From: Candidatus Spyradenecus sp.
GTDB taxonomy: Bacteria; Verrucomicrobiota; Kiritimatiellia; RFP12; DVOR01
Direction of reading: 5' to 3'
DNA length: 64,000 bases
Assembly (NCBI GenBank): GCA_045613865.1
Contig: JAZLBT010000015.1
Location: 42,913 to 106,912 of the forward strand
The translations under genes were made by a program, and so were the position numbers. The notes beneath the pieces are model-generated. The model made no database searches. It had not been told where the DNA came from and saw only the letters and a list, made by a program, of their open reading frames with translations. Positions 14,414 to 58,896 of the stretch are shown in pieces. How positions within the stretch are numbered: position 1 is the stretch's first letter; the number at the start of each line of letters is the position of its first letter.

Positions 14414-14438
14414 GGCGCCTTCGGGCGCCTTTTGTTTT
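14414..14438 (+). terminator. Rho-independent terminator (GGCGCC-TTCG-GGCGCC + T-run)
   Basis: Perfect 6-bp GC stem with a UUCG tetraloop, followed by TTTTGTTTT, 7 nt after the Wzc-like stop. Confidence 0.7.
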
Positions 14439-14557
14439 ACCTCTTGTCTTTCAGATTGTATCTATAACGCATCTTGCTTTTTTAAGGATTAATTTTTGTC
14501 TTTTAATTGTATTTATGATAAAATATATCATATTATATATCTAATGAAGGATAAGGT

Positions 14558-15865
14558 ATGCGACCAACACGGCAAACTTTAGCGGTTAACCTTTTGCTCG
14601 AAGGGCAAAAGGCGCTTGTTGTTGGCGGTGGCCGCGTTGGCTTGCGAAAAACCCACACCCTGCTCGCTGCGGGGATGAGTGTCCGACTCGTTTGCCCGAA
14701 GGCAGTTCCTGAATTTAAAGATATGGCAATTGAATGGAATCAAAAGAAATTTGATCCCTCAGATTTGGATGATTGCGCGCTTGTTATTGCATGTACAGAT
14801 GACAAATTCGTTAATCGTTCAGTTCTTGAAGCTGCCAAAAAGGCAAATATCCTTTGTTGTTGTGCGGATGGAAATTGGGCTGAAGGTGATTTTATTGTTC
14901 CCGCAACCTTCTCCACGAATGATGCCAAAATTTCTGTTTCTACAAATGGACGTAGTTGTCGATCCGCAAAACGAATAATGGAATCGCTTCAACGCTTTAT
15001 GACTCAACAAACGGATGGTTGTTTATTTATTCTTGGTGTCAACGAATCAATTCCCCTCCCCCTTTCAAAAGAGCTTCTCTCTCAACGACTCAACTTCCTT
15101 TCTGGTCTTTATGAATGGGTCTTTTTAACAACGTGCCATCGAACAATGTTTATTGCATGGGCAACACATGCATTAATTGAAAGTAAACTCTTACACCACA
15201 TCTTCAACTTCCCTGCATCCTACACCCATGAAAGCGAAGATGCGATGCGCCACCTAACCTATTTACTCGCTGGTCTAGAATCTCGCATGATTGGAGAATT
15301 TCATATTGTAGGTCAAGTTAGAGATGCATTTGACCATGCACGAGAAGCTGGCTGGGCACGAGCAGCATTACCAGAAGTTTATGCAGAAGCCTATCAACGC
15401 GCACAAAAACTTCGTAATGCCATTGCGCCCCACCTCCCAAACATTGAAGTTGAAGCCTTGGCATTAGAGGGTGCAACTGGCCGTGTTGTTATTGCAGGGA
15501 CTGGCTCGCTCGGCATGGCCACAGCACATCACGCGCGTAAAATGGGTCTTGACGTTACACTTCTCTACCATTCTCGCCCTGCGCAAGACGATTGGGATTG
15601 TCGACCGCTCAACGAATGGGAGTCCGCCATTAAAGGCGCCTCGCGTTTTATCTCTGCATGCACAATGGACACCCCCTATTTTGTTGCAGAAAAAATCCCC
15701 ATTCCAATGGTTGATCTTGGCGCTCCACGAAACATTGTAGGAGATAATAATGTACGAGATCTTGACGCCCTCCGTTGCGACTATCTTAAGCGAACAAATA
15801 GCGTAAATACTATTTTATCCATTGCCAACACCGTCTATCAAACGGGAGATTATCGTCATGTCTAA
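14558..15865 (+). CDS. hemA: Fusion protein. The N-terminal ~150 aa is precorrin-2 dehydrogenase / sirohydrochlorin ferrochelatase (SirC / CysG-N / Met8-like); the C-terminal ~285 aa is glutamyl-tRNA reductase (HemA catalytic + NADPH domains).
   Basis: The N-terminus shows LVVGGGRVGLRK, IACTDDKFVN and ISVSTNGRSCRSAKRI, matching the CysG-N pattern. The C-terminus shows LTTCHRTMF (HemA active-site Cys region), GEFHIVGQVRDAF, VVIAGTGSLGM (NADPH site) and MVDLGAPRNI. Confidence 0.65.
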   Translation: MRPTRQTLAVNLLLEGQKALVVGGGRVGLRKTHTLLAAGMSVRLVCPKAVPEFKDMAIEWNQKKFDPSDLDDCALVIACTDDKFVNRSVLEAAKKANILCCCADGNWAEGDFIVPATFSTNDAKISVSTNGRSCRSAKRIMESLQRFMTQQTDGCLFILGVNESIPLPLSKELLSQRLNFLSGLYEWVFLTTCHRTMFIAWATHALIESKLLHHIFNFPASYTHESEDAMRHLTYLLAGLESRMIGEFHIVGQVRDAFDHAREAGWARAALPEVYAEAYQRAQKLRNAIAPHLPNIEVEALALEGATGRVVIAGTGSLGMATAHHARKMGLDVTLLYHSRPAQDDWDCRPLNEWESAIKGASRFISACTMDTPYFVAEKIPIPMVDLGAPRNIVGDNNVRDLDALRCDYLKRTNSVNTILSIANTVYQTGDYRHV

Positions 15866-17846
15866 CACGTTTCGTGTCGGAGCTCGTGACTCTCAACTTT
15901 CACTCTTACAAGCACAAGAAGCCCTCCAACAAATAACGGCGTGCACAGGTGTAACATTTACACTAATTCCATTTTCTTCTCCTGGAGACCGAGACCAAAC
16001 CACAGATTTATCCATAAGTGATGACGATTTCTTTACCCGGGATCTTGACCATGCATTAATTTGTGGAGATATTGATTTTGCGATTCACTCGGCAAAGGAT
16101 CTTCCGCCTAACGGCTATACTCACGATATAGATTGGTTCTGGCTTCCGTGGCGAGAAGATCCGCGGGATAGTCTTATTTGTCGTTGTGAAAATCCAAAGG
16201 TGATTGGAGTCAGTAGCATTAGAAGAATTAACTGGGTTAAACAAAATCTTCCTAATGCAACATGTAAATCCCTAAGAGGAACAATTCCGTTACGCCTTGA
16301 AAAGCTTGATCGTGGCGAATATGATGCTATTCTTGTTGCAGCGGCAGCACTTCATCGCTTGGGGTTGCAACATCGAATTACACGCTATCTTTCATTAGAA
16401 GAGCTTCCCGTTCCAGAAGGTCAAGGTGTTTTAGCCATTACCCATCGTAAAGACGACAAGCGGATTCAGCAATTACGTAATTTGTGGCTTAAAAGTGTAC
16501 GTTTTATTGGTGCAGGGGTTGGTTCTGCAGAATTATGTACACTTGCAGGACTTCGAGAAATCCGACAAGCAGATACAATTATTTATGATGCTCTTATGGA
16601 TGCAACCCTTCTTAATGAAGCTCCATCCGCAAGAAAAATCTATGTTGGTAAACGAAATGGTGTTCATACACTTAAACAGCCAGAAATAACGAAACTCATC
16701 GAAACACATGTTCGTCGAGGAGAACGCGTTGTTCGACTTAAAGGTGGAGACCCTGGGCTCTTTGGCCGCCTAACAGAAGAAACCGATGCGCTCATTCATG
16801 CAAACATTCCATTCCGAGTTTGGCCTGGCGTTTCTGCTCTTACTGCGGCAACGACCGCCACAGGCCTCTTACTCACAGCAAGAGGCGAGAGTCGTGGCTT
16901 TACAGTCTCAACACCACGTAGTGAAAGCGATGCCATAAATGCCGTTTACTTTATGGCGCTTGGTATTGTTGAAACCATTACCGCTCAACACGCTTCTGAT
17001 ACACCTTGTGCCATCGTTACAGATGCAGCAACACCCAATCAAACAATTGAACTGATGACGGTTGGCCAGCTTCATAATCGTTCTACCAATCGCCCAGCAC
17101 TTCTTATTGTTGGACCAGCAGCAAAACACCTTTTCCAGCCATTAGGACCGCTCGCAGGAAGACGCATTTGGGTCACAGGAAGCAACTCTATTGCAGAAAA
17201 GGCTCACCGCATAATCACCGATCTTGGTGGCATACCAATTCTCTCCCCATTGGTTCAATTTAACCCCATTGATCGTATTAAAATCCGACCGAGTAAAGGC
17301 TATAATCTCCTCGTTTGCACCTCCCCCACTGCGGCAAAACTCTTTTTTAGCGAAATGGTCTCTCCTATCGTTTATATGCCAAAGAAAGTTGCTGTTACAG
17401 GTCCAGGAACCGCATCATACTTCCAACCATATAACATCGATGTTATATGTCCAGAAAAAGACTTCTCCGCAAAGGGGCTTCTCGCAACTCTTCCAAACGA
17501 TCTCAGCGGTATGAAAATCCTTCGTATCCGTAGCGTTGAAGCAGGAACAGCATTGTCAGAGGCTCTCAAAAAACGAGGGGCAAAAGTAAAAGATCTACCA
17601 TTTTACGAAACGATTGCATTGCCAGAGCCTCTCATTCCTCCGCACGACACAGTCTTTCTTGCTTCGTCCTCTGCTGCAAAAGCATGGCTAGCAAGTGGAG
17701 CTCCCCGAAGTGTCTCTATCATCGTAATGGGAGAACCAACAGCAAAACCTTTACGTGAGGCGGGGATTGAACCAACCTTTATTGCTCAATGTTCTGCCGT
17801 TGAGGACCTTTTTAATGCTTATAGCGCAAAGTTTATTTATGGATAA
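15858..17846 (+). CDS. Tri-domain fusion of truncated porphobilinogen deaminase (HemC domains 1-2), uroporphyrinogen-III C-methyltransferase (CobA/SUMT) and uroporphyrinogen-III synthase (HemD)
   Basis: HemC-like segment: [61 protein letters not shown] segment: [39 protein letters not shown]. The C-terminal ~230 aa is HemD-like. Start MSNTFRVG at 15858 overlaps the upstream stop. Confidence 0.6.
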
Positions 17847-19170
17847 TCGTTACGAAACCATCGCTGCACTTGCAACCGCACCAGGTCTAGGTGGCGTTGC
17901 AATTATTCGTTTAAGTGGTCCAGAGGCATACCCCATCGCAGACCAAATAACATCGCTCAAAACGCCTCCAAGCAAACGCCACGCAAATACCTTTGTACAC
18001 ACTTCCCTCTATAACTCGAACAATGACATTCTTGATGATGCTCTCGTGCTTTTTTTCCGCGCGCCCCACAGTTATACAGGAGAAGATACTGTTGAATTCC
18101 AAACACATGGTGGTGCAGTTGTTGCACAGTTAGTGCTTGAGCGACTCTATGAACTCGGTGCGCGACCTGCGGCACCAGGAGAATATACACGTAGAGCTTT
18201 CCTTAACGGGCGCTTAGATCTTACCCAAGCAGAAGCCGTTGCCGATCTTATTTCTGCACGTACACCTCGCGCAGAGCGAGCGGCACGTGCGAACTTACAA
18301 GGACGTCTAGGGGCAACGCTCCTTCCACTATACGATGATACGCTTCGCCTTTCCGTTGAAACAGAACACCTCTTAGACTTTGACGAAGGCGAACTCCCCG
18401 AAGACTTTTATTCCGAAGCACACAATCGCCTCAATGCACTCTCTCAACGTGTAGAAAAAATTCTCTCGACGTGGCACGAAGGACGGCTCGTTCGACAAGG
18501 TGCACTTGTTGTTCTTGCAGGAAAACCTAATGCGGGAAAATCAACACTTCTAAATCTTTTGCTTGGATACAACCGTGCAATCGTAAGTGATGAAGCAGGA
18601 ACAACACGAGACTCTTTAGAAGAGACGTTTATTCTCGATGGTGTGCCCATCCGTCTTACAGATACAGCAGGCCTACGTGATGCACCCACAGCAATTGAAC
18701 GCGAAGGCGTTGCCCGTGCACGCGATTTGGTTGAACAAGCCGATGCAGTCCTCTATCTCATTGCAACAGGAACAGAAGATACCCCGCCACAAGGCGCAAT
18801 CTGCATTCAAACAAAAGCTGATCTTCTCGATAACGCCACACCGTGCTCAAATGCGATCTCTATTTCTGCAAAAATTAAACCGGAAGAAGCTCGTAAAACA
18901 ATCTGTAACGCGCTTCGCGAAAAGCTGCAACTCTCCGCTGGCGAAACGACTCACGCAACGCTTGCAAATGCACGTCAATATGCCGGTCTTACAGAAGCTT
19001 ATAACGCCCTCCTCTCTGCACATCACGAATTCTCCCGAGGAGAAATGGGCTATGTCACAGCAGCACAACAACTCCGTTGTGCTGCACAATCTCTTGGACA
19101 ACTCCTTGGACGTGTTTGGAGCGAAGACCTTCTTGATAATGTCTTTTCTTCTTTTTGTGTTGGTAAATAA
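17839..19170 (+). CDS. mnmE: tRNA modification GTPase MnmE (TrmE)
   Basis: N-terminal [21 protein letters not shown]; G-domain [12 protein letters not shown] and DTAGLR; C-terminal CVGK tetrapeptide. The start at 17839 overlaps the upstream stop. Confidence 0.9.
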
Positions 19171-19246: not shown

Positions 19247-20128
19247 TTATTCTGACGGACTGAGGAATGTACGTAAGGGACGGGCATCTTCATCTGTCGT
19301 AGTTGGCTCCGTCGACATTTCATCTGTTCGGTTCTCATTACGATACTTTGAGCGACATTCCGAACAATAGAAGAAATCCTTATCCCAAGACGTTTCTTCT
19401 TCCTTTCCGCAATTATCACATGTGCGAATTTTACGAGAGCGCTTTACACGACATTCCGCACAGAAGAATTCTTCTCCTGCCCACGTGGTTTCTTCTTCCT
19501 TTTCACAACACATGCAAACTCGCTTTTGAACTTCTCGTTGCAAGCGAAAATCCTTTGCGTGTTCATCCATATAAATATGTGGATAATCAAAACAACCAGG
19601 AGCGGTCAATAAAATCTTACTCGTAATCGAAATGTTACGCTGAGAAGTCATTGCAACCAACTGTACTCGTTTCCCAAGGCGACGAATACGACGAAGTACA
19701 GGCACATAATCAGCATCGCCTGCGACAAGTACTGCAACATCATAAACACCTGGAACAGTTGCATACCATGTCATTTCAGAAGCAAGGTTAGCATTCACCC
19801 ACTTCGTTTCAGGTGTTACACTCGGATCGCAACGAAAATCAATTTCCGTAATATCCATTTCATAACCACACTGTTCGCCCAAGAAATCATAAAAGATTTT
19901 TTGTTTCGTTGGATTATAGCCAACCTTATTAACTGGAATTGTTCCATAATAACACGTACGAACAATATCCACCTCTTGTCCACTAATCTCTGCTAAAGAC
20001 TGTGCAATAATATCAGGGATTCGTTTATAATCTACTTCAAAACCCTTTTCGCCTAATCGGTTAAAGAGCGCTTGTCGACCTTTATAAAGCCAACATCCAT
20101 CAATGAAAATCATCGCACGTATGGCCAT
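19247..20128 (-). CDS. NYN-domain (LabA-like) putative RNase fused to two C-terminal zinc-ribbon repeats
   Basis: N-terminal IFIDGCW...VAGDADYVP fits the NYN/PIN-like pattern. The C-terminus carries two copies of C..C.KEEET.W....FFC.ECR. Confidence 0.55.
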   Translation of the reverse strand: MAIRAMIFIDGCWLYKGRQALFNRLGEKGFEVDYKRIPDIIAQSLAEISGQEVDIVRTCYYGTIPVNKVGYNPTKQKIFYDFLGEQCGYEMDITEIDFRCDPSVTPETKWVNANLASEMTWYATVPGVYDVAVLVAGDADYVPVLRRIRRLGKRVQLVAMTSQRNISITSKILLTAPGCFDYPHIYMDEHAKDFRLQREVQKRVCMCCEKEEETTWAGEEFFCAECRVKRSRKIRTCDNCGKEEETSWDKDFFYCSECRSKYRNENRTDEMSTEPTTTDEDARPLRTFLSPSE

Positions 20129-21011: not shown

Positions 21012-24000
21012 TTATTTCTTACGTTCAAGTTTTTTAACGTCTTCTTGCGACATCAAGACAACTTGGAAGTATTTACAATCCGTTGCGATATTGAGAATAC
21101 GTGGCGCGCCGCCAGAGGTATTCACATCCGAAGCGACATCCAACGTTTGGACAAAATACCATGCAGGATCAGAAAGTGTCTCCTTTCCAACAAGAACAAG
21201 TGTACCATCTGCATAGAGTTGCTTAATCTCTGTTGCACCATTCATAAGTGTAACCGATGCCTGAACACTCTTTTCTGCATTGTTTTCGATTATACCGAAA
21301 GCCGAGAAGCAGAGCGAGACATTGTCACCATTATCCGTAAGTGCGTCATCAAAGCCAAGCCAATACTTTTCTGACAAATCAATCGTACCACTGTTCATTG
21401 CTTGAGCAACGTCAGATGGTGTACCAGAGGCGATTAACCATGCTTCATAGCCAGCATCTTGAGGAGCAGAGTCCTTCAACTTTACAAGGATCTTTTGCGC
21501 TTCCTTATTCGGCACCAACATAACAACATAATTCTTGTCTGTATCAAGGAGCGCCGAATCATAAGAAGACGTCGATACCGAGCGTAAGCCAAGGCCATTA
21601 TCATCCTTTGACGGATCAAAGTCAATACAGTAGCGTCTTAACGTCATTGTCTTCTTTGTCGTGTTCAACGTTGTGACAAGATCCGTTGCGACCTTCACCT
21701 GACTAGAAGCAGCATTACTTAATGCTACATCAACATCAAACCACTCATCCGCAACCGGCTCAAGTGTCAAACGATAACGTGTATTCACTGGGAGATTTGC
21801 CACCGTAAACGACGAAGCTCGAGTCTTCAACGCCGTCAAAATGTCATTTCCTTCTGCATCTGTATAAACACGAGCAAGATCAAAGGTTGGCGTTGGCATC
21901 TTTGCTTCAAGCGCATTCAAGCCCAACGTTCCACCCATATAGCTTGCGCTAATTCGATACGTCCGCGAGATGAAGGCTATAAATTCATCCAACGACATCG
22001 AGGAATAAGGCTGCTTGAAATAATCGCCAGAGAAAGTCGCACTTGTATTATTATTGGGGCCAGGAATTGTAGAAACACCCGAACTTATTAAATAATCCAT
22101 GGGGTACCACACGCGCTGTTGATTTGCAATCGCCTCAAGACCAGATCCATTCTTCTTATAAACATCTACAAAGAGAATAGACGTATTACCCGCTAATCTA
22201 CCAATTGCGATGTTGACATAACGAATAATATTAGAAGAAGCAAAAGACTGCGTCTCAAGGGTTGCAATCTCCGACAAACGCGCATCAAGCGTCAACATCT
22301 CACCCAACGAATCAACTGCATTTTCGTTATTATGCGAGAAGAGAATCTCATCGGCAACAACACCATTATTACGCACGAGCTCAATACCAAAAACAAGTCC
22401 ATCCTTAGCATAATCTACGCCAAGTTCACTGTTAAGATACTTCACCAATGCGTCATAATTCGGGAAGATTTCCATCGTACCAATAGTAGCATCATCACCA
22501 AATTTCGTCTTTTTACCATTCTCTTCAGTCAACAATTCCACCGGGATTGTTGGCGTCTTCAAATAGACGAATTGATCAACATCCATTGCAGGGACAAGTG
22601 TACCCGTTCCCGAGCCATCGTCAACATATTCTCCCGATTGCTTAAGGCATGTAGCATAATCCAAACGCGACAACTCTGCCGTTAACGGATTATATGCTTC
22701 ATCAAACTTAAGATTCGTGATTTCATTATGACTTGTAGCAATTGCATAATAATCAATGCTATCTGCACTTGCATCCGTCGAAACAATACGCTTACCAGGA
22801 ATCCAAGACTTCAACTCAATCGTACGATTATAAAGCGGATGATCCATTGCAAGCATATCGGTCGAACGCGTCCAATTAAGTTTTGTTTTAGCATCCATTG
22901 TCGTTACATCTGGCATCGGTGCATACTTCACAACAATCTTCCAACCATCCAAGGATTGTGCCGGACGATAAAGTTTCTTAGATCCGAAATCAACTTCTGT
23001 AACCGTCGTTGCACGCATTGCAAGTTCAATCGCAGAACCATAACTATCTGTGTGGAAAGGACGAATTTCGTTAATCCAGACATCATTATAACCGATGGAA
23101 TAAATCCATGCATAAGGTGCCACGCCAGCCTTTTGACTCGTTGCCACATAGTTCACATCCGCACGATCTTCAGGAACATACCACGGGCAGTAAACAGGAA
23201 GATTGTCAGACGAGAAATTCGAAACGCCCTGGCAATCAATAATTTCACCCGTTGTTACATCCACGAGAACAACTGCGAAACGAAGAATGGCGCCTTCCGA
23301 CCACACACTTTCATTTTCAGCATTCTTCATCGATAACGTTGCCGTCAACGGAACAAGCGAGTCCTCATTCTGGATCATTGCCAACGCGCCATCATCGTCT
23401 GTTGTCGACGGATCACCCGCATTCAATGCCGCTGTAAGTTCGTCATTCGTCATCACTCGGAAGGCAAGATACGGTGCTTCCGAATCCTTCTTCAAGGCTT
23501 CAACCTCTTGTAATGTCAGCGAGGTCTTATTTTCGAAATCCTCTGTTTCAACTTGATCATCAATCGAACCGCGAATACCCTGAAGCGTCATCGGCAAAAT
23601 ACCACCCTTAACATAAGGCAAGCTCATCGACTTACCACTGTTAGCAAGTTGAAGATTGGTGCGCAACTTCTTGAAATCTGCCGTTACACCATCTCCAATT
23701 GCAGGCATTGCGCCAAACAACTTTGAAATATCCCAGTTTGCAAGGAAAGTTGTTGCACTTTGAGAAGCTGCCCCCGTAAAGAGATCGGAAGGCACTTTAT
23801 TTTTATCGGTCAATGCCCAAACAAGCATCGGAACAACCGTTGGCTTTTCAGAGGTCATCTCTTCAATAATGGTCTCACGAGCATACAAACCATTATCAGG
23901 GCGAATCACTGCCGACATCGACAAGGTATCACCAATCAACGGCTGATAAATCCAACCATGCTTATCACAATGTTCGCCTTCACCATTACCGATTTCATCA

Positions 24001-27000
24001 TCCCAAATAGGATTGGTTACAACCTCACCACCCTTTGTTAAGTCAGGAGCACCAGTGCTATCCAATCCATAGAAGCTCTGAGATACAAGCCATGCACCAA
24101 ATTCAATGCTACCAGGACGCATTGCCATAACAAGATTATTTGTTGCAGACGCCGGTTCTGCAATGAGAAGAACTGCAACCACATAATCATCTGTATCTTG
24201 GAAGAGCAATCCCGAGGTTTCATCAACCACCGCATCGCCATTAAAGATAATACGACCCGTAAAGGATTCTTCACCCGCGACCTCTGCAGTTGCAAAACCT
24301 CCGAGCTCAACATATATGCGAGCCTTTTCTGCATTTGACGTGGCAGTCTCTGCACGATAATAGGTTTCCCGTGCAAGCATCAACAAATCACCCTGCGAGA
24401 ATTCTTCACCCTTTGCAAGACGTTTGCCAACAAGAAGTACTTTACCCATCCATTCTGCAGGAAGCGTCAAGTAATCATAGGTATATCCCACGCGAGGACG
24501 ATAGGTAATCACACGCTGAATTTGATTCTTTGTGATATCAGAAACCCACGAATTCGCAGCAAACGATTCTTCTGCTGTAGCGCCAATAACTGTCGTTTCC
24601 GTTGGCACATAACCAAAGGCTTGCCAACCACAAGGCGATCCACCATAAACCGTATTCAACAATGTTGATGTCACACGAATGCGATTCCATTCGGGATTCG
24701 AATCAAGACCAACATCACCATTGGCGCCATTCTCTGTGCCGTTAGTTTCAGAGGCAACAAAACGCCACAAGGTTCGCTCTGCGCGGGTTTCACGCAAGAT
24801 GTCACCAAACTCATCGGTCGTTGTACCACCGACCAACTGAATCGAACCTGCTGTATTCAAGGCATCCGTTTGCCCCTCTACAATGTAGTGGCCAAGCGTA
24901 GTAGAAACATCGGTGGTAGCAGGAATACTACTTCCACCATTAGCTGTAACACCCGTCCAAACGCCACCCTCGCCTGCACCACACGGACGAATCAATGCAA
25001 CGGCAACAGCATCTTCATTTACATCAGTTGCCGTCTTAGCAACAAACTTGTAAGAGAAAGATGAAATCGCATCAAGCGCTTGAGCATCGCTCATATCCAC
25101 CCAGTCCATCGCTGTTCCACCTGGAACAGTATATTGGACCTTCCATCCATCTGTTGTAACTTCTGGTACACCTTCACCAAGACCTGCCCCAAGAATACCC
25201 TGACGCAACTTTGGAATAACCACTTCAACAAATGGCTCCGTTCCCGTACCTTTAACAAGGTTAACCTCATTCAACCACACCGATTCCGGAGGTGTGCTAT
25301 AGAGGTAGAAGTAAGGGATTTCTCCTTCTTGCTTTAATGGCGCATACCACTCTGGCCATGCATAACGAGGACTGGAAGTATCCTGAGGAATCAAATACTG
25401 AATTGTCTCTGTCGATGCACCCGATTGTACCGTAACGGCATAAACACCCCAGGCAAGATAGGGAATCTTTGGCTCCTTAATTATTATATTGCCATTAAGA
25501 TCCTTTTTCATATAGCTATCACCCAAGACCGTTACACACGTTGGGCTATAAATCTCACTTAAAGTGTCATTCACTTTACGCGTCAAGTCTAATACCGCAG
25601 AGCGCAAATAACCAGCGTCTCCCAACGCATTCATCTCGGCTTTAGCTTTGTCAAAGGTAAGACCCGTTAACGCAAGAATCTTATTCTTCCACTCCGTCCA
25701 CATTGTATCATCAAGATATGCAGTGGGATACGTGATAATCGCCCCAACAAGGCGTGCATTCTTTGCCGCTAATTCCGCGGTATTATATTTCACACTAAAT
25801 CCGAAGGCGCTACCACACCACGGTTGATACTTCGCATCACCCGTAAGCGCATCACCACAGAATGGCGAAACCTCCGTAATAATATCCTCTGCACCCTCTG
25901 CTGCAACAATATAATTTGCAGATAAGGTAAAGGAATACTTCGTTCCATCATTAAGCTCTGGAATCAATTGTAGGACAAGACGATCCACATTCTTTGGCTC
26001 AAAGGTTGCGACCATCGTGTTCGGTTGATTGACATCCGAAGCAAACGTTACACTAAACGAAGTCTCATCTTCAACGATTAAGTTTTTAAGCGCTTCTTCT
26101 GTTGCAACGGCCACACCATCTTCTGTACTTGTCGCAGTTAATGTAACCTTTTCAAGTTTATTAAACGGGAAGGCGGTATAGGTAACTTTAACCTTTGATC
26201 CATCAGGAATCGTACGATAAATCATATCACGACCACCAAAGATCGTTGTTGTACTAATCCCATTTTCATCAAGGAAGTCAACCATATGCTGACCAAGACC
26301 ATTAACTTGAGAAGAGATTGTATTACCATTTGGATCTGCATAGTAAATCAACCACTGATCAAGGTTAATTTGACGAGGTGTAACTTGAACCTCTTTATTC
26401 GTATCTCCTGGACGAGCCTGTTCTGTCAAATTGAGCGTTATATTAAACGGAGAGGCAAAAAGGTGGCTAACATCTAGCTGCCCCTTTTCCTCATTTTCCG
26501 TTCCAAGGGGTGTATTCGCATTGGTACGCATAACCCAAGCACCACCCATGTCGATCGTTGCAATCGAGTTTACGCGCTCCTTGCTTGAAGAACGAGCATC
26601 ACCAATAAAATTCTCTGTTGTGCCATTCTTGTCATAAATGCCATCGGCATTTGTCTTAAATGTCTTCACAACAGCGAGACGACGTGCATGATCTGCAGAT
26701 GTATAATTCGCATCGGGCTTATTCGTCGAGGAATCCCAATCTTCCTCACGGAAACTTTGGAACCATTCTGTACCGAAGCCTTCTTGTTTATAAGCAGTAC
26801 GATACTTTGTTGCTAATGCATCCAGACGAGACTCGGCATTGACAGATGATCCTTGACCATCTTGCCACAAGCTGTAAAGCACAATATGCTCTGCACCACC
26901 CGTTGGACGATAGAGGCGAAGCGCAACAGCAGCACTGTTCGTTCTTTCATAACCAGAATAAAGCCCCGTTTGTGCACGACCCGCATTTTTATGAGGTTCA

Positions 27001-30000
27001 CTCGTAACATTCTCATTATTTGCGAGAAGATTCGAATTCGCATTAATGATGGTATAAAATGTTCGATTCGAAAGCGGAGTTGCACCGCCCTGTGCAGGAA
27101 CTGCACCTGGATCAGGAACAAGCGGAGTCCCTTCATCTCTAATTGCAAAGGTCTCAACTGTAGAGAGTAAATTTGCATCGGAGATATCCGCGAACCAACC
27201 ATTCATGGAGTTCTTTGCCGGTGTACAGAATTCAATAAATCGTTTCATCAATGTTCTTGATGCATCGTTCATATTAAATTCATTAATAAAGACTTCTCCA
27301 GGAACGGTGTCATAAAGCCAAAAATAAGGCGTAAAGAAGCTTGAACCCTTTGTGTCAAAGGCGCCAACACCTGCATTTTCCGCATTTGAAGCAAGCTCAT
27401 TACAACGTGTACGCATTTCCGTATTAAGATTGCGCGGGAAATACCATGGGAAATCGGTATACGAGCCAGCATCAATAATCGAATATCCATAGCGTGGATT
27501 ATCCTCTGTACTATCCTCTGTTTCAAAAACCGCCCATACGGCATAACGCACAAGTCCATTTACTTTCAACTTCTTTATTTCATCAAACGCATCCGCATCA
27601 TCAGAGATTGTCCTAAAGGTTTGCTTTTCCGACGGCTCATCCTGACGCGTAAGCAAGATGGTATTTCCTTGCAAACTTGTCAAACTCTCAAGACCAGAAG
27701 CGGTTAACGCATCGTAATTTGCTTTATTCTCTGCTGCATCCAAACGCATGAAGGTGTCTTCAATTGCAGCACGCTTTGTTGCAAACCATGTTTCGAGCCC
27801 CCAAGCATCCAATGCTTGGGCAGCCTCTTCAAAGCTTGCCTTTGTGTCGCCAAGATTTTCAGTAATAGAAACATTCGATTCTATCGTAGGATCCCATGCA
27901 TAAATCGGTGTTGTTGCAGCTTCAACCGTTGTATCCAAAGCATTTCGGTAAGAATAATCCGAAGTAACACGTTTCATCTCCGTTGGAACATTCCACGTAA
28001 AGAAGACCTTAATTGAATCTTTCTTCACTTGCTGCAACCGATCCACTGTCACTTTTACCGCAAGAGGAGAACCCGCAAGTGGTTGAGAAAGCGGCGAATT
28101 ACGACCATCGGCAACGTCAAAAATACCACTGGCGCCATCCAACACTTTCGTATGCTTTTCAAAATTGTCTCCCGGAAGCGTTGAGAAACAAACATTACTC
28201 AAGCGTACAGAGGGAGCAATTGGTTCTGTGATAGAAAGTTTATCCAACCAAATGCGACCATACGCCTCAACTTGAGGTACACCATTACGACCATCAACAA
28301 CTCCACCCTCTACAGGAACATGAAGGCGAATGCGCTTCAAACTCTTATAATTCGGAATTATTTTAGTCAAATCAACATCATATTGACGATAAAGCGTATC
28401 CTCGATTTTTACACGTGTAAGATACGTATAATCATCTGGGAAGGACAATGATTCATGAGCATCAATGGTTTCACTCTCATAACCATAGACATAAACATAA
28501 TGATTTTCCAAAGAAGGCTCGTCAAGACGTGCAGCAAAACTAATAATCCCCGCACCCTTTTCCAAAATCGGAGACTCTACATAAGACTGAAGCAAAGGAT
28601 TTTCAATGCCACCAACAACATCCTCTGTGATGTGGTCATTAAAAAGTACGGCGCGCGTAAGACGACTCTTCCATGCGAACGTCTTTTCATTAATATTTTT
28701 CGCAAGACGATCCTTCCAATAAAGAGATGCTATTGGCTCTTCGCTTAATCGAATGTTACCTGCACTCCAAAGCGCCACCTCGCCAGAACTTGACGTAATA
28801 CGGAAATCATCAAGATAAACATAGGGGTCATCAGTACTATCAATCGGAGAAACCATGACGAGTCGAAGAATACCACGTTCCATCGAAACATATTTCGAAT
28901 TTTCTAATAGACGCGGTGTGATTGACATCGTTCGCCATTCACCATTGGTTATAGGAAGCTCAATTTCTGTCGAAACATTTTCCCAACTCGACAATGGATA
29001 AGAATCATTCAAATTATCAGTATGAGAGCTTCGGGCATTTGTGTATTGAAGCAACAAACTCACCGAAGGATTCTGTACATTGTCTTTAAATTCACTTTGT
29101 AAAGGAATACGATAACGGAAAGAAATCGTTCCAAAGTTATCGCTCGAATAAGGCGTATAAAGCGCCAATGTACTTGCTGTATGATGAATATTATTCGTCG
29201 ATCCTGCAGAAAGTCCGTTAGAAGTGTTACGTCGAGAATACTGCATCAAGAGACACTGCTCACCCGTGTATTCCGTTGGCTGCGCACTATTTTGCGATTC
29301 GTCTACTGGCTGTACCCAAACACCAACAGCAGAGAAACCATCCGTTTCCGACTCATTCCAATGTGTATTGGTATAAAGAGGAACTTTCGTTCCATTACGA
29401 TTCGTATCATCACCCTGCCACGAGCTAACCGTCAAATCATCAATGAAGACTTCGTTCCCATCTGTTGCCACAAGCGAGAGCGAAAGATCTGCTCGACCCA
29501 CCGTGATAGAATACTCTTGCTCTGTATCTCCCGCGGTAAACACGGCTAATTGCTCCGATTTGCCCTCCGAAGCAGAATATCCATCTAACCGAACCTGAGC
29601 AGAGGTGTCCGCGGGGCGTTTGCCACGTTGAAGTTGTAACTGTGAACCACTTGCGCTATTCACGACCCACTTCGCGTCTGACGTAAGAAGTTCCACTTTT
29701 GTTGTGTCTGGGGTATATGTTAAACCCTCAAATGCGCCATTGGTCGCATTCATATAAACAATAGAGTTAAAGATCGGCCAACATTCCGCCGAACCAAATG
29801 CAATATGCGTTAATGTTGTTTGGGGAACTGTACTCGTTGATTTAATTGTTTTATTCGCAAAGGATGCATTCAAGAAGCCCGCATCATCAATCCAAAGTCG
29901 CGCTTCTTTATTTTGCATCGAATCCTGATTCGTTACATGATAGTCCTTAGTGCCATTATCAACCTCGAACGACTTACGTGTAGCAACGCCCCCTGTCCAT

Positions 30001-33000
30001 TGCCATAACTCCATGACAACACGTTCTTGAGGACGTTCGCGACCATCTTGATAAATGAAAATCTGCGACAATCGTAATTCGTAATAAGTGGAAGTAAGTC
30101 CAACATTACAAAGATAAAGCGAAGTTGAATAACCAGACTTTGTTTTATCATTAATAGCAATTGTTGTACCAACACCCTTAAACGTCTTTGACGAATCACT
30201 GCAAAAAACAATACGGTCAATCGCATAGGGTTCCGAACGACTAAGCTTAAAACGAACCTCTCCTATACCCTTAAGAAGGGAAATATCACTACGAGCATCC
30301 GTAGACTGTTTAATGGTAGCATTACCAGACAATCGAACCATCGCATCGGGTTGATATCCCGATGGCGTCTCAATCATACTATTCGCGTCAAGTTTTAATA
30401 CAACCTGATTACCGTAAGAACTGCCAAATTCAAAGCCCTCGGTCCATGTTCTCGAATCATCTTCATCTTCACGCAAATACTTATGTGACGCAGGTTCACT
30501 CGAAGCACCCCAAGATGCAAAATAGTCTGCCGCAATGTTTGCAAGATCGCCAACAAAGAACTGATACGAAATACCAATATCCCCTGACGATTGCTTATTA
30601 TCACCATAAGCACGGCCAACCGTAAAATGATCCGTAATTTCAGAGGTTGTTGCAAGTGGACCTTGATCAGGAATCCAACCTCTTGAAATCTTTCCATCAC
30701 CCGAGATGATTGCATCAAAATTCGCGACCGCCGACTTTACATTCTCATGGAATTCTGTGTCAGCAAAGAGTCCATTTGACGCAGCATCCCATGTATTAAA
30801 ATCTTGTTCATTTGCACCACAAACAGAAAGTGTCCCAGCCTGCGTTGCAATATCTTCTGGCTCCTTAAAGGTGACACACAGATGTGTCGCACTGAGCTCG
30901 GAAATGTCAACCAAAATGGGAACGATCTCTTCAGGCGTTTTACCCGCTGTTAAGATTTCACCATTTGTTAACGAAATTGTACTTCCTGGATATGCAGGCA
31001 ATGTCGTTGGCATGCCACCTTGAACAACCGTTTCATTTTGACCATACCAATATTCATTGCCGTTCGGTTGACGAACACGAACTCGGAAGTTTACAAGATT
31101 TAAATGGTATTCCGCATCCCCGTCTGTCGCATCTGTAACCCAGGCATAAATCGCATCTGAATCCTTCTTTTCGGTATCCCCAGAATATATAATATTTCCC
31201 TCTGCAGAAACTGCAATTTCTTTAGGAAGCATCACATACCAAGAGCGAGATTCACGACCATCAGGAATGAAATTAACTTCTGCATCCTTCATCACATAGC
31301 CAAACGTTTCTCCTGCTCGCGTACGATATGTTAACACCATATCGATTTGCGTAGCATTCGTAAGTTGCTCTCGAACTTCAAGTGTTAAAGGATAGAAGCC
31401 CTTTGTTGAATCATTGTCATCTACTGGCAATTCCTTCACAAGAAGTGTTGTTTGCTCACGCTTATCCAAAACATCTCGGCCAGCCTCAAACGAACCAAGT
31501 AACTTACAATCTAATGTAAGATTATACACGCCTGGCAAAAGCGAAACTACATTGCCTTTTTCATCACGGCAAAAGGAGTTCTCTGCCACATTTGTAAATG
31601 CACCAAGACCATTTTTTGTAAGACGCTTAGAGTCTACGCCCATAAATGATGCAACAAGGGACTCACTATCAACCTCCATTGCCGCACTGTATGTTCCGCA
31701 AGCCTCATCACTGTCTGCTCGACGCGACAGCCCAAGAGATGCCTCATATCCTCGTGGCACCCGATTTACATTAGGGGTAACCTTAAAGTTAACCGTATAA
31801 CGTTCGCCCTCGTTCTTTTCTACATTATAGACATTACATGCTGCACCAATAAGATTTGCATCATTATCCTTAATTTGTGGTGCACCAATTGTTGCCATTG
31901 GTGTAGCTGATGAGACACGCAACTCTCGAATAAGAATCGTTGTCGCATACGCGTCATCAATCGTAACCTCGTTGCCAAATGATGTTACACGTAAAATACG
32001 GAATTGAGCCCCTGCATTCCCTGTAGCCTCTTCGTCCACCTTCACCGTAACAGATGTAAGACTTTGTGTTGGTGTAATAAGTGTTGCTGTAGGGTTACCT
32101 AAATCTTGCTTTACAAACGTACCATTTGCCCCTTTAACAGAAACACCTTCTGTCGTCCAAACACCTCCAACTTTCACCTGTACATAAAGATACTGTGGAG
32201 ATTCTGTTGCATCCGTAACAATCTTCGTCTTAAAGACAATCTTACTAATACCATCGGGGTAGGTTGGAGAGACAACCATCGGACAATCTTCAAACGTCTG
32301 TAAATTCTTGATGTTTTCAAGAGTCACGTCCACATCATTTAACAACAATGCACCCTCGTCTACGTAATTGCCTCCCGCAGAACCCAATGCAACTTTCTTT
32401 AATTCCCACGAAGTCCCAGAAATAGCCATGGAATCAAGCATATAAGCATTGTACTTCTCACGACCAAAATAAGAATCGCTCCAAACGTTATCTGTATTAT
32501 CATCACGATTAACCCCACGCCAAATACGCGGGTCTGTGAAATCCATCTTACGGCCATGGTCTTGAATATCAGAAACAATCGTGAAGAGGCCTAAACCGTA
32601 CCGCGATGCCGCATACCACTCATACGTTGCACGACCATTAATCAACGAATCCAAAAGCGGATTCATATTTTCAGGATTATTCCAATCAATCACAAGCACA
32701 TTACTATAAAAACGGCGTTCCCAACGCGCAGGATCGCGCACTGTTCCCACAGTCAAGGAGGTCAATGTGTCAGGAATCGAAGCGCCAGAAGAAACCACAT
32801 CTCGATTAATATCCCCCTGCTGAGGCATGGGATAATAACCCGAATCTTCTGCGGTTAAATAGATTGCACCAGACCACGCAGAGCCTTCGCCTCCATGCGG
32901 ACGATACATAAGGGTTGCAGGAATAGCTCGAAGTGTAGTCGCAATTCCCTTTGTTCCCGTACGAGGAACCGACACCGTTAAGCAAACCTGTGCGCTTGTT

Positions 33001-33182
33001 GAATTCTCCGTCAAAGGATCCTTTGTATCAGCATCAACAAGTGTTAATGCATAAAGCACCGGCTCTTCTTGAGAAACTCCAACAGGCACAGATGTTGTTG
33101 CCGAAAAAACAGGTTCGGCGGACCCGAAAATAAAGCCCGCCACAAGTGCTGAAAGCACGTTTGAAAAGGATAAGCGTTTCAT
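21012..33182 (-). CDS. Giant secreted protein 1 (4,056 aa from the ATG at 33182), probably a multi-domain beta-sandwich / jelly-roll surface protein or adhesin
   Basis: One uninterrupted ORF with a Sec signal peptide (MKRLSFSNVLSALVAGFIFGSAEPVFSA). It is Thr/Ser/Asn/Asp/Gly-rich and Cys-poor, with recurring (I/L)DD(F/L).(I/V) motifs (YVYLDDFRITS, EVFIDDLTVSS) of the kind that close ConA/LamG-like jelly rolls. The ORF track start at 33191 is a TTG; the ATG three codons later was preferred. Confidence 0.85.
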   Translation of the reverse strand: MKRLSFSNVLSALVAGFIFGSAEPVFSATTSVPVGVSQEEPVLYALTLVDADTKDPLTENSTSAQVCLTVSVPRTGTKGIATTLRAIPATLMYRPHGGEGSAWSGAIYLTAEDSGYYPMPQQGDINRDVVSSGASIPDTLTSLTVGTVRDPARWERRFYSNVLVIDWNNPENMNPLLDSLINGRATYEWYAASRYGLGLFTIVSDIQDHGRKMDFTDPRIWRGVNRDDNTDNVWSDSYFGREKYNAYMLDSMAISGTSWELKKVALGSAGGNYVDEGALLLNDVDVTLENIKNLQTFEDCPMVVSPTYPDGISKIVFKTKIVTDATESPQYLYVQVKVGGVWTTEGVSVKGANGTFVKQDLGNPTATLITPTQSLTSVTVKVDEEATGNAGAQFRILRVTSFGNEVTIDDAYATTILIRELRVSSATPMATIGAPQIKDNDANLIGAACNVYNVEKNEGERYTVNFKVTPNVNRVPRGYEASLGLSRRADSDEACGTYSAAMEVDSESLVASFMGVDSKRLTKNGLGAFTNVAENSFCRDEKGNVVSLLPGVYNLTLDCKLLGSFEAGRDVLDKREQTTLLVKELPVDDNDSTKGFYPLTLEVREQLTNATQIDMVLTYRTRAGETFGYVMKDAEVNFIPDGRESRSWYVMLPKEIAVSAEGNIIYSGDTEKKDSDAIYAWVTDATDGDAEYHLNLVNFRVRVRQPNGNEYWYGQNETVVQGGMPTTLPAYPGSTISLTNGEILTAGKTPEEIVPILVDISELSATHLCVTFKEPEDIATQAGTLSVCGANEQDFNTWDAASNGLFADTEFHENVKSAVANFDAIISGDGKISRGWIPDQGPLATTSEITDHFTVGRAYGDNKQSSGDIGISYQFFVGDLANIAADYFASWGASSEPASHKYLREDEDDSRTWTEGFEFGSSYGNQVVLKLDANSMIETPSGYQPDAMVRLSGNATIKQSTDARSDISLLKGIGEVRFKLSRSEPYAIDRIVFCSDSSKTFKGVGTTIAINDKTKSGYSTSLYLCNVGLTSTYYELRLSQIFIYQDGRERPQERVVMELWQWTGGVATRKSFEVDNGTKDYHVTNQDSMQNKEARLWIDDAGFLNASFANKTIKSTSTVPQTTLTHIAFGSAECWPIFNSIVYMNATNGAFEGLTYTPDTTKVELLTSDAKWVVNSASGSQLQLQRGKRPADTSAQVRLDGYSASEGKSEQLAVFTAGDTEQEYSITVGRADLSLSLVATDGNEVFIDDLTVSSWQGDDTNRNGTKVPLYTNTHWNESETDGFSAVGVWVQPVDESQNSAQPTEYTGEQCLLMQYSRRNTSNGLSAGSTNNIHHTASTLALYTPYSSDNFGTISFRYRIPLQSEFKDNVQNPSVSLLLQYTNARSSHTDNLNDSYPLSSWENVSTEIELPITNGEWRTMSITPRLLENSKYVSMERGILRLVMVSPIDSTDDPYVYLDDFRITSSSGEVALWSAGNIRLSEEPIASLYWKDRLAKNINEKTFAWKSRLTRAVLFNDHITEDVVGGIENPLLQSYVESPILEKGAGIISFAARLDEPSLENHYVYVYGYESETIDAHESLSFPDDYTYLTRVKIEDTLYRQYDVDLTKIIPNYKSLKRIRLHVPVEGGVVDGRNGVPQVEAYGRIWLDKLSITEPIAPSVRLSNVCFSTLPGDNFEKHTKVLDGASGIFDVADGRNSPLSQPLAGSPLAVKVTVDRLQQVKKDSIKVFFTWNVPTEMKRVTSDYSYRNALDTTVEAATTPIYAWDPTIESNVSITENLGDTKASFEEAAQALDAWGLETWFATKRAAIEDTFMRLDAAENKANYDALTASGLESLTSLQGNTILLTRQDEPSEKQTFRTISDDADAFDEIKKLKVNGLVRYAVWAVFETEDSTEDNPRYGYSIIDAGSYTDFPWYFPRNLNTEMRTRCNELASNAENAGVGAFDTKGSSFFTPYFWLYDTVPGEVFINEFNMNDASRTLMKRFIEFCTPAKNSMNGWFADISDANLLSTVETFAIRDEGTPLVPDPGAVPAQGGATPLSNRTFYTIINANSNLLANNENVTSEPHKNAGRAQTGLYSGYERTNSAAVALRLYRPTGGAEHIVLYSLWQDGQGSSVNAESRLDALATKYRTAYKQEGFGTEWFQSFREEDWDSSTNKPDANYTSADHARRLAVVKTFKTNADGIYDKNGTTENFIGDARSSSKERVNSIATIDMGGAWVMRTNANTPLGTENEEKGQLDVSHLFASPFNITLNLTEQARPGDTNKEVQVTPRQINLDQWLIYYADPNGNTISSQVNGLGQHMVDFLDENGISTTTIFGGRDMIYRTIPDGSKVKVTYTAFPFNKLEKVTLTATSTEDGVAVATEEALKNLIVEDETSFSVTFASDVNQPNTMVATFEPKNVDRLVLQLIPELNDGTKYSFTLSANYIVAAEGAEDIITEVSPFCGDALTGDAKYQPWCGSAFGFSVKYNTAELAAKNARLVGAIITYPTAYLDDTMWTEWKNKILALTGLTFDKAKAEMNALGDAGYLRSAVLDLTRKVNDTLSEIYSPTCVTVLGDSYMKKDLNGNIIIKEPKIPYLAWGVYAVTVQSGASTETIQYLIPQDTSSPRYAWPEWYAPLKQEGEIPYFYLYSTPPESVWLNEVNLVKGTGTEPFVEVVIPKLRQGILGAGLGEGVPEVTTDGWKVQYTVPGGTAMDWVDMSDAQALDAISSFSYKFVAKTATDVNEDAVAVALIRPCGAGEGGVWTGVTANGGSSIPATTDVSTTLGHYIVEGQTDALNTAGSIQLVGGTTTDEFGDILRETRAERTLWRFVASETNGTENGANGDVGLDSNPEWNRIRVTSTLLNTVYGGSPCGWQAFGYVPTETTVIGATAEESFAANSWVSDITKNQIQRVITYRPRVGYTYDYLTLPAEWMGKVLLVGKRLAKGEEFSQGDLLMLARETYYRAETATSNAEKARIYVELGGFATAEVAGEESFTGRIIFNGDAVVDETSGLLFQDTDDYVVAVLLIAEPASATNNLVMAMRPGSIEFGAWLVSQSFYGLDSTGAPDLTKGGEVVTNPIWDDEIGNGEGEHCDKHGWIYQPLIGDTLSMSAVIRPDNGLYARETIIEEMTSEKPTVVPMLVWALTDKNKVPSDLFTGAASQSATTFLANWDISKLFGAMPAIGDGVTADFKKLRTNLQLANSGKSMSLPYVKGGILPMTLQGIRGSIDDQVETEDFENKTSLTLQEVEALKKDSEAPYLAFRVMTNDELTAALNAGDPSTTDDDGALAMIQNEDSLVPLTATLSMKNAENESVWSEGAILRFAVVLVDVTTGEIIDCQGVSNFSSDNLPVYCPWYVPEDRADVNYVATSQKAGVAPYAWIYSIGYNDVWINEIRPFHTDSYGSAIELAMRATTVTEVDFGSKKLYRPAQSLDGWKIVVKYAPMPDVTTMDAKTKLNWTRSTDMLAMDHPLYNRTIELKSWIPGKRIVSTDASADSIDYYAIATSHNEITNLKFDEAYNPLTAELSRLDYATCLKQSGEYVDDGSGTGTLVPAMDVDQFVYLKTPTIPVELLTEENGKKTKFGDDATIGTMEIFPNYDALVKYLNSELGVDYAKDGLVFGIELVRNNGVVADEILFSHNNENAVDSLGEMLTLDARLSEIATLETQSFASSNIIRYVNIAIGRLAGNTSILFVDVYKKNGSGLEAIANQQRVWYPMDYLISSGVSTIPGPNNNTSATFSGDYFKQPYSSMSLDEFIAFISRTYRISASYMGGTLGLNALEAKMPTPTFDLARVYTDAEGNDILTALKTRASSFTVANLPVNTRYRLTLEPVADEWFDVDVALSNAASSQVKVATDLVTTLNTTKKTMTLRRYCIDFDPSKDDNGLGLRSVSTSSYDSALLDTDKNYVVMLVPNKEAQKILVKLKDSAPQDAGYEAWLIASGTPSDVAQAMNSGTIDLSEKYWLGFDDALTDNGDNVSLCFSAFGIIENNAEKSVQASVTLMNGATEIKQLYADGTLVLVGKETLSDPAWYFVQTLDVASDVNTSGGAPRILNIATDCKYFQVVLMSQEDVKKLERKK

Positions 33183-33183
33183 A

Positions 33184-39827: not shown

Positions 39828-40073
39828 GAAACATTCTCTCCTGATTTTAGGGCGCAATGCACCTTCGCATAATATTGCCCGCGTACCATTATAACAAAAA
39901 ATATCACACTCTTCTAAAAAAGTCAAGTATTTTAAAGAACTTTTATTTTTCCACCTCCTTTTCCTATGCAAAGCAAAAGCATCACATACGCTTAAACAAT
40001 TTCTTGACTTTGGGGATTCAAATCCTCTACAATAAGTGAAGTTCTAACAATTTAATCATTAAGGTCTACGATA

Positions 40074-54675: not shown

Positions 54676-54714
54676 ACCGTGTACCACTCCATTTCAAGGG
54701 GGTTTTTTATAAAA

Positions 54715-56646: not shown

Positions 56647-56669
56647 CTTCATTGTTCGTTTTCGAAGGA

Positions 56670-58775: not shown

Positions 58776-58896
58776 ATCTGACTCCTAATAGTACGGGATG
58801 CAAATAAAAAAGATAGTGCAATATATCACAAACCTTGATGAAAAATCAAGCATTTATTTTATTCTTTTAAAAAAAGTCCTTGATGTATCAAAAGAA

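Follow-up and report, generated by a model that had tools for sequence, protein, structure and literature searches.

A predicted siroheme operon of two fusion proteins in Candidatus Spyradenecus, with a conserved porphobilinogen deaminase module that has no domain 3

Introduction

Fused enzymes of early tetrapyrrole and siroheme synthesis are encoded by two overlapping open reading frames (ORF1 and ORF2) in a 64-kb stretch of DNA from Candidatus Spyradenecus sp. (contig JAZLBT010000015.1, positions 42,913 to 106,912 of the forward strand), referred to here at its full length as the window. The initial annotation of this stretch placed five enzymatic activities of tetrapyrrole and siroheme synthesis in the two frames. 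The assignment of five domains to two overlapping frames holds, with coordinates, Pfam, NCBIfam and PDB matches in agreement, and the SirC-like N terminus passes its hidden Markov model (HMM; TIGR01470), with no sign of separate reading frames or a frameshift. The five activities themselves stand as predictions, three of the five modules (SirC, glutamyl-tRNA reductase or GluTR, and HemC) being trimmed. The genes and modules are as follows.

14558-15865, + strand: ORF1, a SirC::HemA fusion of 435 amino acids, with the boundaries of the initial annotation
14558-15010, + strand: SirC or CysG-B-type module, amino acids 1-151, an NAD-binding Rossmann domain with a short central segment (Pfam, NCBIfam, CysG alignment)
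15017-15862, + strand: GluTR module, amino acids 154-435, with the catalytic domain, the NADPH-binding domain and the start of the spinal helix (Pfam, 1GPJ profile alignment)
15858-17846, + strand: ORF2, a HemC(domains 1-2)::CobA(SUMT)::HemD fusion of 662 amino acids counted from ATG 15858 (Pfam, NCBIfam, homologues)
15858-16478, + strand: HemC module, amino acids 1-207, the first two domains of porphobilinogen deaminase, including an Arg cluster and D81, the catalytic Asp of HSAKDLP (Pfam, alignment with hydroxymethylbilane synthase, HMBS)
16497-17132, + strand: SUMT (CobA or CysG-A) module, amino acids 214-425 (TP_methylase, E 1.8e-33; CysG alignment)
17163-17843, + strand: HemD (uroporphyrinogen-III synthase) module, amino acids 436-662 (HEM4)
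17839-19170, + strand: mnmE, tRNA modification GTPase, the last of three genes (NF003661, 393 bits against a cutoff of 380)

The reading preferred here is that these genes probably form a translationally coupled three-gene operon with its own promoter region, whose two fusion proteins carry modules for five steps and whose output would be sirohydrochlorin or siroheme. All five modules are presumed active from their sequences. GluTR would convert Glu-tRNA to glutamate-1-semialdehyde, HemC domains 1 and 2 would convert porphobilinogen to hydroxymethylbilane, HemD would convert this to uroporphyrinogen III, SUMT would take uroporphyrinogen III to precorrin-2, and SirC would complete the series with sirohydrochlorin. 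The genes for HemL, HemB and the iron insertion step would have to lie outside the window. In this organism the product would presumably serve as siroheme, the cofactor of sulfite or nitrite reductase, and possibly also as a haem precursor via the Ahb route, as in related genomes of the Planctomycetes-Verrucomicrobia-Chlamydiae (PVC) group.

A HemC module without its cofactor-binding domain

The HemC module is recognized clearly, by Porphobil_deam (PF01379) at E 6.5e-49 and by hemC TIGR00212 at 167.6 bits (cutoff 164), and aligns with residues 3-216 of the 313 residues of Escherichia coli HMBS, a match that covers the two domains of periplasmic-binding-protein-like fold. Domain 3 of the E. coli enzyme, residues 222-313, has a turn with Cys242, to which a thioether bond joins the dipyrromethane cofactor (PMC3945110, PMC7242693). 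The part that is retained contains the catalytic residues, which were mapped by eye from the alignment range (E. coli D84; R11, R131, R132, R149 and R155): none of D81, R122, R123, R140 and R146 varies across 112 sequences, and conservation is at least 90% at R10 and S12. An AlphaFold2 model of ORF2 has a pLDDT of 92.3 and a pTM of 0.91.

The module could instead be a dead remnant, or a domain for substrate binding or scaffolding, so that ORF2 would act only as CobA/HemD and a separate full-length HemC would be the true HMBS. This is considered unlikely, although it explains directly why domain 3 and the cofactor cysteine are missing (ORF2 has no PF03900 match), and although every characterized HMBS has both (PMC3945110, PMC7242693), a point that also counts against the activity proposed here. 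A dead domain is difficult to reconcile with the conservation of the catalytic Asp and the substrate-binding arginines. Compared with the window, the HemC module is 62% identical in the close clade and 52% in distant members, against 63% and 52% for SUMT and lower values for HemD, and because HemC is as conserved as the SUMT module it does not appear to be decaying. The postulated partner is also missing from the window and the related loci searched. The operons of eight relatives (L002-L005, L007, L014, L015 and L084) contain neither a second hemC nor a stand-alone domain 3, so that the domain-3-less form is the only hemC in operons that run from hemA to ahb or sulfite reductase genes. A cleaned domain-3 HMM, which found 47 positive controls, gave no matches in the six frames of the window and 18 related loci. 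Matches of the first such HMM at the SUMT start in L004 and L007 were an artefact, the L004 SUMT segment having been in its training set; the cleaned HMM gave none there.

A short HemC is, moreover, an accepted annotation class, since NCBIfam holds NF002202, a curated hydroxymethylbilane synthase model of 241 positions that the HemC module matches over positions 19-225. On the strength of these sequence patterns, the domain-3-less HemC is taken to be a working hydroxymethylbilane synthase.

If so, two routes to polypyrrole synthesis may be envisaged. The chain would be built without a covalently tethered dipyrromethane primer, or, in the fusion family of the PVC group, the primer would be tethered to a cysteine of the fused SUMT, Cys227. 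That HMBS enzymes lacking both domain 3 and the canonical cofactor cysteine make up a large, unrecognized and functional class is a broader proposal, put forward as doubtful.

16536-16538, + strand: codon of Cys227, in the N-terminal loop of SUMT (family alignment)

Cys227 is the sole near-invariant cysteine of the fusion family (109 of 112 members), and the corresponding position in 71 other SUMT loci is Ile, Leu, Phe, Val or Met in 69 and Cys in one. It lies 20 residues past the equivalent of E. coli HMBS residue 216, as compared with 26 for Cys242. This near-invariance and the similar spacing make Cys227 a candidate replacement tether in the PVC fusion family; as an explanation for all domain-3-less forms it is weak. 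The position may also be buried, being hydrophobic in ordinary SUMTs. As a general tether it was rejected on three counts: the domain-3-less fusions of Omnitrophota, Spirochaetes, Paludibacter and Termititenax have the canonical GAGPGD...L at this place, the HemC module of L012 has no cysteine at all, and in a family of SirC::HemA::HemC(N) proteins, where HemC(N) denotes the domain-3-less form, the chain ends about 15 residues after HemC domain 1 with no SUMT to follow. If the tether were real in the PVC family, the reaction mechanism would require the fusion, and HemD and SUMT would receive hydroxymethylbilane directly on the same chain.

The SirC::HemA::HemC(N) proteins constitute a second family of domain-3-less HemC, here C-terminal to SirC::HemA (L084 5671-7812; P0311, P0315, P0326 and P0322). 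In this family a conserved APWEC replaces the REDPRD hinge motif between domains 1 and 2, and the cysteine of this motif is a possible alternative cofactor site in that family.

The other modules of the two fusions

The SUMT and HemD modules, which complete ORF2, are not among the trimmed ones. SUMT matches TP_methylase (PF00590) at 116.8 bits and aligns with CysG residues 218-443. Its first strand begins 6 residues past the last HemC helix in the AlphaFold2 model. D244, K265 and G296-G297-D298 are invariant in the 112 sequences and correspond to D248, K270 and the GGD motif of CysG; the loop reads GAGVGS, not GAGPGD. HemD matches the two-lobe HEM4 fold (PF02602) over its full length, at E 9.6e-29.

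The SirC module at the head of ORF1 is matched by NAD_binding_7 (PF13241) over amino acids 12-116 (E 1.3e-29) and by cysG_Nterm TIGR01470 at 77.6 bits (cutoff 62.3), and aligns with CysG, over residues 10-150 only, as well as with Bacillus megaterium SirC. It retains the GxGxxG of the Rossmann domain and the active-site-loop Ser (CysG S128), and is without the C-terminal helical domain, about residues 150-215 in CysG; GluTR begins at about amino acid 154. There is precedent for so short a SirC in the 157-position NCBIfam model NF005223 and in stand-alone sirC genes of about 160-174 amino acids in L004 (by tblastn) and L007 (a 174-residue frame, by Pfam). The module is distinguished by cysteines in three motifs (ACTDD, CCCADGNW and GRSC), conserved in 86-98% of 96 sequences.

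14792-14794, 14855-14863 and 14957-14959, + strand: codons of the conserved SirC cysteines C79, C100-C102 and C134, respectively (family alignment)

At the matching positions CysG has A, C-N-V and P. Because these cysteines fall on strands and a loop that line the CysG-B active site, a metal or iron-sulfur site is conceivable there. The sequence does not discriminate between a ferrochelatase and a dehydrogenase-only type of SirC, and the presence of a separate CbiK-type chelatase beside the short SirC of L004 and L007 hints, by analogy, at the dehydrogenase-only type.

The GluTR module is matched by GlutR_N (PF05201) over amino acids 175-287 of ORF1, at 67 bits and E 2e-18, and a family profile of the HemA part aligns with residues 3-326 of 404 of Methanopyrus kandleri GluTR (1GPJ) at E 4e-36. 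The NADPH-binding domain is present. The dimerization domain, which gives canonical GluTR its V-shaped dimer, is not: ORF1 has no PF00745 match and ends at about residue 326 of 1GPJ, and the domain is missing from nearly all listed homologues of ORF1, with P0118, which has PF00745, as the exception. T192, C193, R195, Q253, G314 and G316 are invariant among 96 sequences.

15134-15136, + strand: codon of Cys193, the GluTR active-site cysteine, invariant in 96 of 96 family members
15125-15151, + strand: region with the GluTR motif TTCHRTM, ORF1 amino acids 190-198 (alignment)

SirC-type proteins are homodimers, and the SirC module may by analogy serve as a replacement dimer contact for the lost GluTR dimerization domain.

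Besides the missing domain 3, several observations weigh against the activities and the pathway proposed here. GluTR of the window's sub-clade has the motif TCHRT(M/A/V) in place of TCNRxE (TTCHRTM in the window, with Asn to His and Glu to Met), and 11 residues are deleted from its N-terminal segment, around amino acids 160-172. Both changes are confined to the window and its nearest relatives, P0002-P0007, and because of them GluTR activity may be impaired or altered in this sub-clade. The hemA equivalog TIGR01035 is missed by a wide margin (61.9 bits against 209.55), and the SUMT equivalogs narrowly (TIGR01469, 162.7 against 185; NF004790, 169.8 against 198); the SUMT near misses are expected for a divergent lineage. 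Finally, hemB, hemL, a chelatase gene, ahb genes and genes for siroheme enzymes, including sulfite reductase, were found neither in the 64-kb window nor within 10 kb of the fusion genes in five closer relatives, namely four loci of the window's clade (L082, L083, L085 and L086) and the more distant L001.

The transcription unit and its link to mnmE

The boundaries of the unit are suggested by two elements upstream of ORF1.

14414-14438, + strand: intrinsic terminator-like hairpin, GGCGCC-TTCG-GGCGCC followed by a T run, which closes the upstream Wzc-like gene
14496-14524, + strand: sigma-70-like promoter candidate, TTGTCT, a 17-nt spacer and TG-TAAAAT (consensus match only)

The hairpin forms a boundary after which a separate transcription unit begins, and the promoter candidate sits in an AT-rich spacer 5' of ORF1. 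The gene 3' of mnmE is on the opposite strand. With a terminator-like hairpin and a promoter-like site before ORF1 and an opposite-strand gene after mnmE, the unit is delimited to three genes. For ORF2 the most likely start is ATG 15858 rather than TTG 15822, since a GGGAGA Shine-Dalgarno sequence lies 7 nt upstream and the 662-residue form is recorded in an NCBI-derived protein collection; with this start ORF1 and ORF2 overlap by 8 nt, ATGTCTAA. The start of mnmE is most likely ATG 17839 (MDNRYE...), and the stop of ORF2 overlaps it, again by 8 nt, ATGGATAA, which bears out the coupling to mnmE that had been proposed. An Rfam scan found no riboswitch upstream of ORF1. No tRNA-Glu lies near hemA, tRNA-Val and tRNA-Gly being the only tRNA genes of the window.

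The adjacency of mnmE to the fusion genes recurs in the four other loci of the clade, where the unit consists of bioD (separate or fused), sirC::hemA, hemC::cobA::hemD and mnmE. In one of these (L085, 12067-20519) rpmH, rnpA and yidC are found 4.4 kb downstream of mnmE, which is the usual origin-proximal neighborhood. This location of mnmE suggests that its link to the hem genes, while kept in the clade, is positional rather than functional.

Comparison with known systems

The closest structural reference is CysG of E. coli and Salmonella (1PJQ), which likewise combines a SirC/Met8p-type NAD-binding module with a SUMT module and is the best PDB match of both modules of the window. In CysG, however, both modules are on one chain, whereas in the window they are on two proteins, each fused to other pathway enzymes, and the SirC module stops at the equivalent of CysG residue 150.

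Fusions of CobA and HemD occur in clostridia, lactobacilli and Desulfovibrio. Two-domain CobA/HemD genes were seen beside a separate hemC in dozens of loci, many with hemB and hemL downstream. Their order and linkage of SUMT and HemD equal those of the window protein, which adds HemC domains 1 and 2 in front with no domain 3 between. Full-length HemC::CobA::HemD fusions of 800-880 amino acids (L029, L044, L055, L065 and L074; P0366) likewise unite HemC, CobA and HemD, in this order, in a single polypeptide. These retain domain 3 with its GGC cofactor turn (PF03900 match), whereas the window protein and the PVC family are without it.

The trimmed HemC and GluTR modules also have stand-alone counterparts that are not fused. 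NF002202/PRK01066, of 241 positions, is a short HemC without domain 3, and NF001909/PRK00676, of 338 positions, is a short GluTR without the dimerization domain. Both represent chlamydial enzymes, and no short HemC or HemA of these types is known to have been characterized biochemically. The modules of the window match the two models with scores far below the cutoffs and thus are not members. The SirC::HemA::HemC(N) fusions, of about 700 amino acids (P0311; L084 operon), share with the window a SirC::HemA without dimerization domain and a HemC without domain 3. They differ in that HemC(N) ends SirC::HemA with nothing after it, whereas in the window HemC(N) fronts CobA::HemD, and in the hinge, which is APWEC rather than REDPRD.

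Distribution of the fusions

At E <= 0.001, ORF1 has 271 homologues and ORF2 has 1916, and almost all of the listed full-length ones have identical domain sets. They derive from NCBI, ENA, JGI and Logan assemblies and, where named, belong to Kiritimatiellia or 'Candidatus Spyradenecus'. On a 6.1-Mb chromosome, OW818680.1, which carries the homologue P0230, a distance of 4.7 kb separates the two fusion genes.

A scan of GTDB species genomes extends this distribution, although the window's closest relatives are not among the matches listed, to which all of the following groups refer. The domain-3-less triple fusion is present in metagenome-assembled genomes labeled Lentisphaerales, Victivallales, Verrucomicrobiota and Kiritimatiellia and, more distantly, in those of Omnitrophota, Spirochaetes and Paludibacter, and a HemC(N)::CobA form occurs in 'Ca. 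Termititenax'. HemC::CobA::HemD with a complete HemC is found in Blautia, Lachnospiraceae, Eubacteriales, Treponema and 'Ca. Merdivicinus', and hemC followed by a separate cobA-hemD gene is the arrangement in most other genomes. Among the homologues of ORF1, P0118 joins SirC to a full-length HemA.

That the fusions are an artefact of sequencing or assembly, a stop codon lost or a frame shifted in a metagenome-assembled genome, has a negligible chance of being right. The window does seem to be part of a draft assembly, its recorded contig having 112,527 bp, but hundreds of proteins with the same architectures derive from assemblies made independently (NCBI, ENA, JGI and Logan). Their junctions are conserved, and models are confident across them. 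The spread of homologues, together with the 6.1-Mb chromosome, refutes such an artefact. The fusions are real and lineage-wide, a variant of known enzymes that is already in databases under generic names.

The initial annotation had called the architectures non-textbook. No paper was found on SirC::HemA or HemC(N)::CobA::HemD, nor on HMBS without domain 3, chlamydial HemC or haem synthesis in Kiritimatiellia, so that the description is apt. Both fusion architectures are nevertheless the norm in a large PVC/Kiritimatiellia clade and are not rare.

Operon contexts and the end use of the pathway

What the pathway supplies is best approached through relatives in which the fusion genes lie among other genes of known type. 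In L002, L003, L004, L005 and L007, hemB and hemL directly follow the domain-3-less fusion gene. The order in L002 and L003 is a radical-SAM/SPASM gene, a radical-SAM gene, ahbAB (NirDL-like siroheme decarboxylase), SirC::HemA, the triple fusion, hemB and hemL. In L007 it is a full-length hemA, two radical-SAM/SPASM genes, ahbAB, a CbiK-type chelatase gene, a short sirC, the triple fusion, hemB and hemL. L004 has a CbiK-type chelatase gene, a stand-alone short SirC and ahbAB near its fusion gene, and ahb genes are likewise present in part in L010. By gene content the operons of L002, L003 and L007 constitute a complete siroheme-dependent haem operon. These PVC relatives with an ahb context lie at about 40-44% identity.

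Outside the PVC group the context is assimilatory sulfate reduction. The order in L084 is Rrf2, cysH, cysD, cysNC, sulfite reductase, SirC::HemA::HemC(N), CobA::HemD, hemB and hemL; L014 and L015 have cysH and cysNC (L014 also cysD), sulfite reductase, the fusion gene, hemB and hemL.

Sirohydrochlorin might, however, be destined for a cobaltochelatase, the gene pair then feeding anaerobic cobalamin (B12) synthesis. SUMT and SirC belong to the anaerobic B12 route as well, and a chelatase gene of the CbiK family adjoins the fusion gene in L004 and L007. In those loci the CbiK-type gene lies beside ahbAB (in L007 also beside the radical-SAM ahb genes) and cbi methyltransferase genes are missing, for which reasons the role of an iron chelatase fits it better. 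With no cbi or cob genes in the 64-kb window, no cobalamin riboswitch, and fusions tied to sulfite reductase in other lineages, a cobalamin function is regarded as very unlikely.

Siroheme as the product is thus the reading supported by context. The siroheme-dependent haem route, at which the initial annotation had hinted, is borne out to the extent of this siroheme context and of the ahbAB operons of PVC relatives; the Ahb route to haem is seen in these relatives and not in the 64-kb window, to whose genome it would be assigned by analogy. The need for haem itself differs among cultured Kiritimatiellia, as K. glycovorans has no cytochromes (PMC5148204) and Pontiella has several (PMC7356697).

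Origin of the fusions

The clade of the window offers some indication of how the fusions arose. Gene overlaps are 8 nt in the window and 4-26 nt in the four other loci of the clade. The gene bioD (dethiobiotin synthase; TIGR00347, above cutoff) is unrelated to tetrapyrroles. In L082 its reading frame overlaps sirC::hemA; L083, L086 and about 15 other homologues carry it as a fusion, with BioD N-terminal to SirC::HemA in L083 and L086, whose BioD::SirC::HemA proteins have about 660-690 amino acids.

L082 9361-10017: bioD (TIGR00347)
L083 10001-12067: BioD::SirC::HemA (TIGR00347)
L086 7996-10008: BioD::SirC::HemA (TIGR00347)

In the lineage of the window bioD has been lost from this place or was never there. 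SirC is seen in a variety of forms: as a protein of its own, joined to HemA or to HemC, and as part of SirC::HemA::HemC(N). The overlaps, the bioD fusion and the varied forms of SirC are better explained by stop codons lost repeatedly than by selection for a single channeling arrangement, and the fusions most likely arose by stop-codon loss between overlapping operon neighbors. The two processes are not mutually exclusive. Each fusion junction is accompanied by loss of a peripheral domain, namely the C-terminal helices of SirC, the GluTR dimerization domain and HemC domain 3.

Other features of the window

Convergent with mnmE is a gene for an NYN-domain protein (19247-20128, - strand; predicted RNase fold), whose C-terminal tail has two CxxC...CxxC repeats, CCEKEEETTWAGEEFFCAEC and CDNCGKEEETSWDKDFFYCSEC. 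Two giant frames follow on the same strand, one of 4059 amino acids with no Pfam match (21012-33191, -) and one of 4666 amino acids with a single Laminin_G_3 domain as its only match (40687-54687, -). Frames of 360-540 amino acids antisense to the latter are probably shadows of its repeats. A primary-type sigma-70 factor of 837 amino acids (37458-39971, -) has regions 1.1 to 4 in its last 540 or so residues, preceded by an N-terminal extension of about 300 amino acids with no Pfam match. A frame of 709 amino acids (56652-58781, +), also with no Pfam match, is exactly antisense to the gene for elongation factor G (56670-58775, -) and is almost certainly a shadow frame, not a gene.

Implications

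The gene content of this operon is ordinary, all five modules being members of well-known enzyme families. Its main interest is a conserved HemC without the cofactor-binding domain, a loss shared by thousands of related sequences. Pathway predictions from genomes that demand full-length models of HemC or HemA will probably count Kiritimatiellia and their PVC relatives as tetrapyrrole auxotrophs in error. If the domain-3-less HemC is active, the rule that HMBS tethers its cofactor through domain 3 would have a widespread exception.

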